This document shows, piece by piece, positions 8,558 to 10,379 of a stretch of 49,974 bases of DNA. Location of the stretch: NCBI GenBank assembly GCA_038064695.1, contig JBBTSO010000003.1, forward strand, positions 1-49,974, written 5' to 3'. The stretch comes from Patescibacteria group bacterium. GTDB taxonomy: Bacteria > Patescibacteriota > Minisyncoccia > Phycocordibacterales > Phycocordibacteraceae. Under the pieces are notes generated by a model. The model was not told the origin of the DNA. It saw nothing but the letters and a program-made list of their open reading frames with translations, and did no database searches. The position numbers and the translations under genes are program-made. The stretch's first letter is position 1, and each line of letters starts with the position of its first letter.

Positions 8558-8655
8558 TATTTTTATTATGCGACGTCTTTCAATACTCACAACAATAAAA
8601 AAAAGTATTTGTGGATAACCTTATCGCGAACAAAAAAATAATTTCTGAGAAAAAA

Positions 8656-9660
8656 TTATAAAAAATTCACTTCAGGAACAATGTGAAGCGCCGTGTGTGC
8701 AAAAACTTTTTCTTGAACGAGTGCAGCGAGTGCGCGCACGTCGTTCGCTGTTGCGCCACGTTCCGTTGCAATCACCAACGGTTGCGCGTCCCACACGAAT
8801 GCGCCACCGACCTTGAGTCCTTTTGCGTGGACGACGTGGTCAAGAATCCACGCGAGAGATAACTTCACTCCACGTTGGTCTGGGTACTGCGGTAACCCTG
8901 AGTGCGCTACAGCAAGTCTTTCTGCCTCTGTATGGGTAACGACGGGGTTCATAAAGAACGAACCAGCAGTACCCACTTCATTAAGATCGGGAAACTTTTT
9001 TGTTCGTATAGAAAGCACCGCTTCACGCACGTCGTTCAAGGTCGGGTGCGAATGATGCTCAAAGTACTGTGTTAAATCTTTATAAGAAATACGCGGTGTT
9101 CCGTTTTTTTCCAAAACAAAAGCAACGCGTATGACCACATACCGATTAGGATTTTTTTTAAATACGCTCGTGCGGTATCCAAAATCAAGTTCGTCTTTGG
9201 AAAGTTTTTTTATTTCTTTCAACGTGCGATCGTACACCTCAACCCATAAAATTGTCTCTGACACTTGAGCACCGTACGCACCAATGTTTTGAATGGGTGC
9301 TGCACCAACACTTCCTGGAATGCCCGAAAGATTTTCAAGTCCCCAATAATTTTTTGAAATAGTATCGCGAACGAGCGAATCCCACGGGACTCCTGCTTCT
9401 ACCACAACGTGCACGCTTCCCTCTTTTTCTTCATAAGTAATTCCGTCGGTTGCAACCACGACGACGGTCCCATTAAAATATTCATCCGAGGGTAACACGT
9501 TTGAACCTCCGCCAAGAATCACCACCTGCTCACCTGCTTCATCTAAATGTCTGATGGTCTTAAAAAGTTTATCGCTCGTTCGAACTCTCTGAACAGCACG
9601 AATATCTCCACCTACCCTAAAGGTAGTGAGTTCTCTAAAAGACGGTGAGGTGTGATCCAT
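8656..9660 (-). CDS. murB: UDP-N-acetylenolpyruvoylglucosamine reductase
   Basis: TTFRVGG, LGGGSNVL, GLENLSGIPGSVGAAPIQNIGAYG, FGYRTSVF, GTAGSFFMNP. Confidence 0.97.
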   Translation of the reverse strand: MDHTSPSFRELTTFRVGGDIRAVQRVRTSDKLFKTIRHLDEAGEQVVILGGGSNVLPSDEYFNGTVVVVATDGITYEEKEGSVHVVVEAGVPWDSLVRDTISKNYWGLENLSGIPGSVGAAPIQNIGAYGAQVSETILWVEVYDRTLKEIKKLSKDELDFGYRTSVFKKNPNRYVVIRVAFVLEKNGTPRISYKDLTQYFEHHSHPTLNDVREAVLSIRTKKFPDLNEVGTAGSFFMNPVVTHTEAERLAVAHSGLPQYPDQRGVKLSLAWILDHVVHAKGLKVGGAFVWDAQPLVIATERGATANDVRALAALVQEKVFAHTALHIVPEVNFL

Positions 9661-9675
9661 TAAAAGTAGGCGGGA

Positions 9676-9759
9676 GTTCCCTCCACGGTGCGACTGACGG
9701 GCGCGAGCTCCAAAAAGATCTTATGTGAGTGCTGCCATCAGCCGCATCCTAGAGGCAAC
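9676..9759 (-). ncRNA. Candidate 84-nt rod-like structured RNA or murB 5' leader (RNA B)
   Basis: GTTGCCTCTA/TGGAGGGAAC and GATGCGGCTGATGG/CCGTCAGTCGCACC helices with G-U pairs; extended -10 TGaTATTCT (9766-9774) predicts +1 at 9759. Confidence 0.6.
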
Positions 9760-9814
9760 AATAAAAGAATATCATAGAGTCTAGAAAAACAAGCTGGCTA
9801 TTGATACTACCCGA

Positions 9815-9932
9815 GGGTGATGAAAATTGATGCAATGCGAGGCGCTAAGGAGTGCGGGCCTGAGGCGTATTTTGGATACGGTGAAGGCGTAAACGACGCC
9901 AGCAACGATGCAGAGCGCAATTTCCATCACCC
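9815..9932. repeat. RPE/MITE-like palindromic element
   Basis: Terminal inverted repeats GGGTGATGAAAATTG / CAATTTCCATCACCC (14/15); central CGTAT-TTTGG-ATACG hairpin at the midpoint. Confidence 0.6.
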
Positions 9933-9937
9933 GACAA

Positions 9938-9967
9938 ACGAAAAACCCCCTTGCGGGGGTCTTTCGT
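9938..9967 (-). terminator. Intrinsic terminator
   Basis: Minus strand ACGAAAGACCCCC-GCAA-GGGGGTTTTTCGT. Confidence 0.8.
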
Positions 9968-10006
9968 AGATCTTTGGAGCCAATACATTTAAGTATCAGC
10001 ACTCAC
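9938..10006 (-). ncRNA. Candidate ~70-nt small RNA (RNA A)
   Basis: Lies between a near-consensus promoter and a terminator; hairpin GCTGATAC-TTAAAT-GTATTGGC; no credible ORF. Confidence 0.6.
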
Positions 10007-10012
10007 CCTTCT

Positions 10013-10041
10013 AATATAGCAAATCGGGAGCCCTTTTGCAA
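10013..10041 (-). promoter_or_regulatory. Sigma70 promoter for RNA A
   Basis: TTGCAA-17 bp-TATATT with extended -10 TG. Confidence 0.65.
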
Positions 10042-10052
10042 GCGGCTAAAAC

Positions 10053-10379
10053 TCAAACAAGCGGTTCAAGACACACATAGCAAGAGCCCTCTCGCCACGT
10101 GGACCATGGCATAGTTAAAAGAATATGAGGACCACCTGTCGGTTTACATACACCATGGTCAAAGTCATATCTCCCTTTTAAATTTGCAGCTTCTAAACCT
10201 TCCATTCGCCTTTTTGCCTCTTCAGTGAGAGAAATAGGAAGGTCAGCATTATCTTCGCCTGACACTCCATCAGAAAAATCAACATCAGAAATCAGTTGTT
10301 GCAGGTAATACGCCACACCGAGAGCGGCTAGGGTTGCCACTCCACCGAGCACAATGCGGTTTTTTATAGCTTCAGTCAT
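10053..10379 (-). CDS. Hypothetical N-terminally anchored protein with C-terminal Cys/His cluster
   Basis: TM RIVLGGVATLAALGVAYYL; HGVC...H...CYVC; upstream TTGACA-18-TATACA. Confidence 0.6.
   Translation of the reverse strand: MTEAIKNRIVLGGVATLAALGVAYYLQQLISDVDFSDGVSGEDNADLPISLTEEAKRRMEGLEAANLKGRYDFDHGVCKPTGGPHILLTMPWSTWREGSCYVCLEPLV

Follow-up and report, generated by a model that had tools for sequence, protein, structure and literature searches.

Two small RNAs with co-evolving complementarity at a murB locus of Patescibacteria, a candidate antisense switch

Compensatory change between RNA A and RNA B

The DNA examined here is a stretch of 49,974 nucleotides (the window, to which all positions refer unless another contig or locus is named) representing contig 3 (JBBTSO010000003.1) of a Patescibacteria genome (G000; assembly GCA_038064695.1), which has a size of 715 kb in 6 contigs and was rated 98.2% complete. 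On its minus strand, upstream of murB, lie two short genes for structured RNAs, termed RNA A and RNA B, and a comparison of related genomes showed that their predicted intermolecular base pairing is kept by compensatory change across genus, order, and class. With middling confidence, we consider that both RNAs are transcribed separately and would form a dedicated antisense switch, A being the antagonist and B an autonomous effector RNA. The genomes searched were samples from the genus (n = 33), the order (n = 151), other orders of the class (n = 145), and the rest of the phylum (n = 120), and related genomes in the counts are not mutually independent. Promoters and terminators are understood throughout as sequence motifs.

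A first-pass annotation, made from the letters of the window, had described two structured RNAs that pair at the apex of B, and its statements on their coordinates, on the promoter of A, on both folds, and on the distance to murB all hold. The details of the pairing were likewise found as described: the first 10 nt of A are an exact complement of a site in B (helix h1), and a second stretch of A forms 13 bp with B around a 2-nt bulge (h2 and h3), the two target sites being 3 nt apart, in permuted order, and both located in the apical stem and loop of B (Table 1). As dinucleotide shuffling of the 398-nt region also gave a complement of 10 nt or longer in 14 of 300 cases, the 10-nt match in the window alone is only suggestive; it is the comparative evidence that places the pairing far beyond chance.

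In 76 A-B pairs, the 5' GUGAGUG of A pairs with CACUCAC of B. Helix h1, with a length of 8 bp and formed by the 5' end of A with GCACUCAC, is nearly invariant: at its position 1, 68 pairs have G-C, 6 have G-U, and 2 have A-U, and at its position 8, 52 have C-G, 18 U-G, one U-A, and 5 a mismatch. The loop of B between ACUCAC and GGAG differs by lineage, and the single strand of the cognate A is its complement, with perfect h2 runs of 13 bp at locus L083, 11 bp at L073, 9 bp at L078, and 8 bp at L087 and L089. Over 57 distinct loop sequences, h2 comprises 7-14 paired bases in 75 of the 76 pairs, and the complementarity is therefore kept in relatives, which the first-pass annotation had set beforehand as a test of its proposal. 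Cognate h2 helices revealed a mean of -11.41 kcal/mol versus -6.54 ± 0.29 kcal/mol for permuted partners, and none of 20,000 permutations, which handle the lineages as exchangeable, reached the cognate value; a smaller set agrees. The own loop was the single best partner for only 14 of 57 A RNAs, because related lineages carry similar loops.

RNA A folds (-32.3 kcal/mol, z = -5.8, equalled by none of 200 shuffles) into one hairpin and, behind it, a terminator composed of a 13-bp hairpin and a U-tract, and its covariance model matches the window at 10006-9932 with 58.4 bits. In the alignment A1, which like that of B is fitted to a covariance model, 9 of 16 predicted pairs show compensatory change, the terminator stem being among the co-varying parts. 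A promoter motif, TTGnnn-(16-19)-TAnnnT, lies 5-9 nt ahead of the first G in 72 of 78 A genes, compared with 9 of 1560 random control positions, and 66 of those 72 promoters carry the TG element; given this distance, the predicted transcript begins with the seed. The possibility raised by the first-pass annotation that the 5' end of A is a 6S-style product RNA (pRNA) is contradicted by this promoter, and the 6S model (RF00013) gave no match in the genome. A thus displays what is generally expected of a trans-encoded base-pairing small RNA (sRNA), namely its own promoter, an intrinsic terminator, and complementarity to a target kept by compensatory change. An Hfq-like motif was not seen in the genome, which is a weak test.

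Of 28 genus loci, 17 have the 7-mer GTGAGTG upstream of B, always in the same context of promoter, 5' GUGAGUG, co-varying hairpin, A-rich single strand, and co-varying terminator. With the A model, 26 of 33 genus genomes scored above 43 bits. At the level of the order, A was found beside B in 18 of 20 loci (17 at E < 1e-5 and one as a 20.5-bit match at the expected position) and in 36 of 40 additional loci, and in other orders in 7 of 10 loci (six by the model and one by eye). The 5' GUGAG is invariant across the class; the h2 strand drifts freely.

RNA B folds as a single rod (-41.3 kcal/mol, z = -4.7, equalled by none of 200 shuffles), the length of which ranges from 84 to 93 nt across homologues, with about 90 nt being typical. 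In 61 of 70 B genes, a TAnnnT hexamer precedes the rod by 0-15 nt, and 36 of these 61 also have a TTGnnn -35 element; control positions showed the hexamer in 349 of 1400 cases and the combination in 44 of 1400. In the window, the promoter scanner listed TAGCCA-18-TATGAT, which lacks TG, and not the extended -10 element TGATATTCT. BLAST detected B in 27 of 33 genus genomes at 76-93% identity, the adjoining MurB proteins being only 37-46% identical. A covariance model built from the genus found B as a single copy in 105 of 151 order genomes (95 of 131 genera), with no match in the 120 other genomes sampled from the phylum, and a model built from 60 order-level sequences recovered it from 6 of 6 genomes of the same order and, among the 145 genomes representing other orders of the class, from 29.

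In the alignment of 60 B sequences, 94.9% of the cells are standard pairs and 22 of 27 pairs have changed on both sides; none of 500 shuffles reached these values, and slid controls paired at 37-56%. The outer helices co-vary freely, and the apical domain is almost invariant, consisting of GCACUCAC-A, a variable loop, and UUGGAGC-UCGC, with AUA and UCGC as invariant unpaired or junction nucleotides. By inspection of the alignments, a conserved reading frame was not seen in B.

Fragments resembling B were also noticed at second sites. In G000, 26 nt of the 3' half of B recur with 96% identity directly after a terminator, between convergent genes (G000:C2:60324-60349, L002), and in G001 an 18-nt exact match to the loop and GGAG part is followed by a second, degenerate B-like piece, again between convergent genes (G001:C19:38656-38673, L032). 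These could be relics, decoys, or recombination scars. At L144:1174-1273, a run of N is flanked by a duplicated 5' half of B, which looks like a scaffolding artefact of that assembly.

All 26 A-positive genomes of the genus are among the 27 B-positive ones, and the sole genome with only B has it at a contig end. The two genes are usually arranged in tandem, on the same strand and 100-800 nt apart; elsewhere the distance is 0.5-1.8 kb, and in six cases (G019, G002, L079, L082, L086, and L114) they are divergent. Such arrangements imply separate transcripts that must meet in trans, and they do not agree with a co-transcribed pseudoknot as a general model, as had been suggested in the first-pass annotation. 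In no arrangement do the genes overlap on opposite strands, as cis-encoded antisense RNAs would.

The apex of RNA B as a possible switch

In free B, GCACUCAC is predicted to pair with GGAG..GC of its own 3' side. Since this apical pairing uses the target of A, the A-B and B-B pairings are mutually exclusive. Two lineages have altered these bases, which are fixed elsewhere. At L144, which belongs to another order, B carries CACCCAC and UUGGGG, an intramolecular compensation (CUC/GAG to CCC/GGG), and an A gene located 1.1 kb upstream, with the promoter TTGACA-17-TATCAT, starts with GUGGGUG, which is the intermolecular compensation; this A also holds an exact 9-bp complement of the local loop. 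A single position of B thus co-varies with both its intra- and its intermolecular partner. At L118, position 34 of B, position 82 of B, and position 8 of A change together. The triple covariation at L144 indicates that A would unzip the apical helix of B.

Putatively, the unpaired stretch of A ahead of its terminator would nucleate on the apical loop of B (h2, 7-14 bp, lineage-specific), after which the 5' end GUGAGUG(C) would invade the apical helix at its 5' strand (h1, 8 bp) and, in some lineages, a CUCC-type stretch of A would also capture the GGAG strand (h3). The outcome would be an unzipped apical domain of B within an A-B complex resembling a four-way junction. For the window, the cost of opening was estimated at 8.2 kcal/mol for B and 8.3 kcal/mol for A, and the gains at -16.6 (h1) and -15.9 kcal/mol (h2 + h3), giving a net value of about -16 kcal/mol, any penalty for the junction not included; for the first contact at the loop, the estimate is a cost of 0.8 and a yield of -6.8 kcal/mol. 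The comparison itself establishes the complementarity and the mutual exclusivity of the pairings; the order of the steps, loop nucleation and then strand invasion, we infer because hardly any opening is needed for the first contact at the loop.

An effector role is assigned to B because its rod co-varies freely and its apical helix is frozen in sequence. The only invariant part of A is the complement of the invariant part of B. UUGGAGCUCGC, a part of the frozen apex, is not consistently matched by A, which suggests that something besides A reads the apex. The apical helix (GCACUCAC with UUGGAGC..GC) may therefore be the working surface of B, read by a third partner, probably a protein. Downstream, pairing with A could cause release or occlusion of this partner, or altered processing by RNase III or altered translation of the B-murB transcript. 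In most genomes, the B promoter would also drive murB, and B would double as the murB 5' leader.

Several points weigh against this proposal. Among the conserved neighbours of the pair, there is no candidate gene for a protein that travels with A and B. RNAcofold of A and B returns two separate folds, the cofold being 3.5 kcal/mol worse, in a method that cannot place helices inside a hairpin loop. Judged from geometry, it is uncertain whether h1 and h2 can form fully at the same time, as they would lie on diagonal arms of the proposed junction, joined by 3 nt of B. Two further points concern murB, which lies behind B, in the same direction, at 65 of 93 loci. At 55 of these 65, rod and start codon are separated by at most 25 nt (median 9 nt, with six negative values, the choice of start codon being uncertain); a rod so flush against the murB start would hardly be neutral for translation. 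Moreover, of five genus genomes without A and B, four gave no MurB match, and the fifth has a murB cut by the contig end.

The relation to murB and other explanations

These last points speak for a role centred on murB. In a possible, though doubtful, explanation of this kind, A is a murB-specific riboregulator. B would then be a rod in the murB 5' untranslated region (UTR) that occludes the ribosome-binding region, A would alter processing by RNase III or another enzyme, stability, or translation, and any B without murB would be a relic about to be lost. Apart from the position of murB behind B and its joint absence with the pair in the genus, such regulation is consistent with GGAG-type Shine-Dalgarno motifs inside the 3' strand of the rod (in the genus) and with an open reading frame (ORF) in the genome carrying the RNase III signature motif. 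In the order, 84 genomes have both B and murB, 21 have B without murB, 30 have murB without B, and 16 have neither (n = 151), so B is somewhat commoner with murB (84 of 114) than without (21 of 37); yet this association, in which phylogeny was not taken into account, is weak (odds ratio 2.1, p = 0.065).

The retention of the pair where murB is missing speaks against a purely murB-directed function. The 21 of 105 B-positive order genomes without a MurB_C match belong to many families and keep B with the pairing intact, for instance the 13 perfect bp at L083. In five of five tested B-positive genomes without adjacent murB, neither the MurB protein nor PF02873 gave a match; Mur ligases were still present in four of these five but not in the fifth. 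In addition, about 13 genomes with both B and murB have murB elsewhere (coordinates compared by eye), and A pairs only with the apex, the lower rod of about 20 bp over the start region being untouched. A cis-regulatory murB leader would always lie in the 5' UTR and be lost together with its gene, and B behaves otherwise. Behind B, the murB-less loci show terminator-like hairpins and, beyond these, the secA promoter region, as judged by eye and not by tool counts. The suggestion of the first-pass annotation that the RNAs are an sRNA switch on the murB leader was thus borne out in part, at the 65 of 93 loci where B forms the leader of murB, and does not cover those 21 genomes, which keep A and B. 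We read B as an autonomous RNA with a promoter that murB makes use of, and the loss of murB as loosening, but not removing, selection on the pair.

As a side observation, 37 of 151 order genomes lack a MurB_C match, and murB seems to be often lost while other peptidoglycan genes remain.

It is unlikely that A and B constitute a sponge pair, in which A would be an sRNA with many targets recognised by its invariant 5' seed and B a decoy combining a seed match with a private zip-code helix (roles that could be reversed). The class-wide invariance of GUGAG next to a drifting h2 is what a many-target seed would produce, and the short B-like fragments at second sites in G000 and G001 would fit in as well. 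However, CACUCAC is not enriched around the start codons of G000, with 9 occurrences in 664 windows versus 9.2 expected, and no conserved second target was found in this genome, the only one searched, with crude gene calls. The genome-wide excess of GCACUCAC is a coding effect: GCACTCAC occurs 55 times in G000 versus about 22 expected, and 26 of 32 sense-strand matches in genes are in one frame (GCA-CTC-AC, Ala-Leu-Thr), so the excess stems from codon or peptide usage and not from target sites of A.

We regard it as quite unlikely that A and B are a two-piece housekeeping RNA, joined in one four-way-junction particle with a protein and serving a constitutive function in Paceibacteria. The single copy and conservation across the class, the near-consensus promoters, and the invariant unpaired or junction nucleotides AUA and UCGC would be in line with it, as would the fixed site beside secA in a lineage where RNA and proteins of the signal recognition particle (SRP) were not found. 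SRP RNA models (RF00169 and RF01854) gave no match in the genome, while matching in 12 and 7 of 14 control genomes, and neither PF02978 (Ffh M domain) nor PF00448 (SRP54 GTPase) was detected in it, both protein families being found in 14 of 14 controls. For PF00448, 41 relatives yielded one borderline fragment of 22.5 bits, and none of 121 genomes of the phylum matched at E values up to 1e-10; in a six-frame translation, the motif DT[AS]GR was present only in a primase-like ORF. B as an SRP RNA was dropped as a candidate, with Ffh and FtsY likewise not found. A passage in PMC8080830 describes two SRP subunits as absent in many CPR (candidate phyla radiation) bacteria, so a lack of SRP in such bacteria was already known.

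Against such a particle, 46 of 151 order genomes and 116 of 145 genomes of other orders gave no match for B, although some divergent copies could have escaped the search, and B was lost within the genus, which is not what an essential RNA would show. A resembles an ordinary terminator-ended sRNA, no protein partner is apparent, and neither RNA shows similarity to any ribozyme or ribonucleoprotein (RNP) RNA in Rfam. The more specific version, in which A and B would be halves of a Paceibacteria-specific RNP RNA with the junction nucleotides as its core, acting in envelope or secretion biology beside secA, appears very unlikely to us; if true, the pair would be a lineage-specific housekeeping RNA machine and not a gene regulator.

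Finally, chance complementarity or an element acting at the DNA level (protein-binding repeats or an internal murB promoter) can be practically dismissed, for all that 10-nt complements arise in shuffles and that TTGGAG is followed 17 nt on by a promoter-like TAnnnT in 11 of 65 murB-adjacent B genes, because it is the complementarity and not the sequence that is conserved, 57 distinct loops each being matched by their cognate A, equally in tandem and divergent orientations, and because the promoter-like spacing is missing in the other 54 murB-adjacent genes and occurs in only 1 of 27 murB-less ones.

Surroundings of the pair and comparison with known systems

Coordinates of the features at the locus are collected in Table 1.

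Table 1. Features of the A-B locus in the window, in the order of the minus strand.
Feature	Position	Strand	Basis or remark
Wzy_C/TPR membrane-protein gene	12614-10440	minus	first in minus-strand gene order
116-codon ORF, not conserved	between Wzy_C/TPR gene and RNA A		placed in minus-strand order
Promoter of RNA A: TTGCAA (10041-10036), 17-nt spacer, TG-n-TATATT (TATATT 10018-10013)	10013..10041	minus	promoter scan, 9/12 matches
RNA A, ~69 nt: 5' seed, hairpin 1, single-stranded pairing stretch, intrinsic terminator	9938..10006	minus	fold and covariance model
h1 strand of A (GUGAGUGCUG)	9997..10006	minus	first 7 nt invariant across genus
h3 + h2 strand of A (GCUCC + AAAGAUCU)	9968..9980	minus	last 7 nt unpaired in A alone
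Terminator hairpin and U-tract of A	9938..9967	minus	fold; stem co-varies
A-B spacer, 180 nt	between RNA A and RNA B		placed in minus-strand order
Extended -10 of RNA B (TG-A-TATTCT; TGATATTCT)	9766..9774	minus	7 nt upstream of rod; aligned TAnnnT hexamers
RNA B, 84-nt rod: two co-varying outer helices and almost invariant apical domain	9676..9759	minus	fold and alignment
h1' site of B (CAGCACUCAC)	9725..9734	minus	5' strand of apical helix in free B
h2'/h3' site of B (AGAUCUUU-UU-GGAGC)	9707..9721	minus	loop part lineage-specific, UUGGAGC invariant
murB (FAD_binding_4 + MurB_C)	8656..9660	minus	start codon 15 nt after rod; no terminator between B and murB
secA	8195-5709	minus	460-nt gap between murB and secA

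The Wzy_C/TPR membrane protein, murB, and secA are the conserved neighbours of the pair. The nearest named homologues of SecA, at 73-76% identity, carry the labels Candidatus Paceibacteria, Patescibacteria group bacterium UBA2163, and Candidatus Kaiserbacteria, which places the organism in the Paceibacteria (Parcubacteria) lineage of the CPR. The A-B spacer contains a 48-codon ORF for a hydrophobic peptide (9781-9927, minus strand), for which a tblastn comparison with the other 92 loci gave no convincing match, the lowest E value being 0.063 over 14 residues. Small ORFs as toxins of a type I toxin-antitoxin system were rejected, as this spacer ORF is not conserved and no conserved frame was seen in B. 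In two genomes of the order, an RNase P RNA lies about 0.3-0.8 kb from the pair (L089:1792-2128, 110.3 bits, and L078:685-1116, 82.1 bits); the candidate in G000 is on a different contig and, with 53.6 bits, below the cut-off of 100 bits.

Between murB and secA, the exact 9-mer TTATCCACA, which we take to be the DnaA-box consensus, is found at 8610-8618 (minus strand). At 53 of 93 loci it occurs downstream of B on the strand of B, versus about 0.45 expected by chance, and at none does it occur there on the opposite strand; it is located just after murB or, where murB is absent, 20-190 nt after B. Behind it and before secA, a TTGTTG-like -35 and a (C/G/T)ATAAT -10 element can be recognised by eye, and the 9-mer resembles an operator in front of the secA promoter that recurs across the class. 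An origin of replication (oriC) near the locus was considered and judged improbable, with a single TTATCCACA and no turn of the GC skew in the window.

Searching the whole window against Rfam 15 at the gathering threshold revealed only small-subunit (SSU) rRNA and one tRNA. For positions 9500-10200, at E values up to 10, the best match had 15.8 bits versus a gathering score of 47, and among 18 related loci there was nothing at B and, at A, terminator-driven matches of at most 31 bits versus gathering scores of 43-55. No Rfam 15 family therefore explains A or B, in agreement with the first-pass annotation, which had not recognised them as known RNAs. A tmRNA is present in the genome. Mimicry of rRNA by GGAGCUCGC was rejected, its other copy in the window, at about 47420, being in a small ORF and not in rRNA. 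In searches of the full-text literature, which did not reach motif lists confined to supplements, no description of the A-B pair was found. We regard A and B as two new RNA families of the kind in which a base-pairing sRNA has a structured partner.

Most CPR bacteria (Patescibacteria) have not been cultured, and their genomes, about 0.7 Mb in size, encode few recognisable regulators; to our knowledge, almost nothing has been described about RNA-based regulation in them. The two families display an intermolecular covariation of a kind usually confined to one RNA, including a three-way covariation pointing to a conformational switch, and offer a naturally mutated series for studying the co-evolution of a trans-encoded antisense RNA and its partner. 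The arrangement of Wzy_C-like gene, A, B, murB, DnaA-box-like motif, and secA can serve as a marker locus and as a handle on envelope-gene control in these organisms. If B has a protein ligand, a new RNA-protein regulatory axis would exist in a very large section of the bacterial tree that is still little understood.

Among known systems, CopA-CopT resembles the pair in that a short, terminator-ended antisense RNA attacks an apical stem-loop and in that separated segments would give a complex resembling a four-way junction. CopA is encoded opposite its target CopT, so its complementarity comes free; in contrast, the genes of A and B do not overlap, whether in tandem or divergent, and their complementarity needs selection to be kept; their locus is chromosomal, conserved in the class, and without a replication gene. 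With trans-encoded sRNAs that act on a 5' UTR through a 5' seed, A shares an own promoter, a seed at the extreme 5' end, a Rho-independent terminator, and a target in a leader by the start codon. Its pairing, however, is unusually long, with 8 + 7-14 (+4-6) bp, and it has one dedicated and equally conserved partner, which is present also without the downstream gene.

GlmY and GlmZ, which control the synthesis of cell-wall precursors, are homologues competing for a protein and are not known to pair with one another, and known sponges titrate sRNAs that have regulons. Like these, the present locus has two small RNAs, one modulating the other, and lies among cell-envelope genes; unlike these, A and B would pair directly, and no regulon was detected in G000. 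The system of 6S RNA and pRNA, together with the ssrS-ygfA arrangement, is similar in having a rod reset by a short complementary RNA and an RNA gene co-transcribed with a downstream protein gene, but B has about 90 nt and not about 180, has an apical domain and not a central bubble, and its partner A is encoded in the DNA with its own promoter and not templated by B. With RNA I and RNA II of the Enterococcus par locus and with other type I toxin-antitoxin pairs of dispersed complementarity, the pair has in common that pairing proceeds via several separate short segments; it differs from all of these in that it comes without a conserved toxin ORF.

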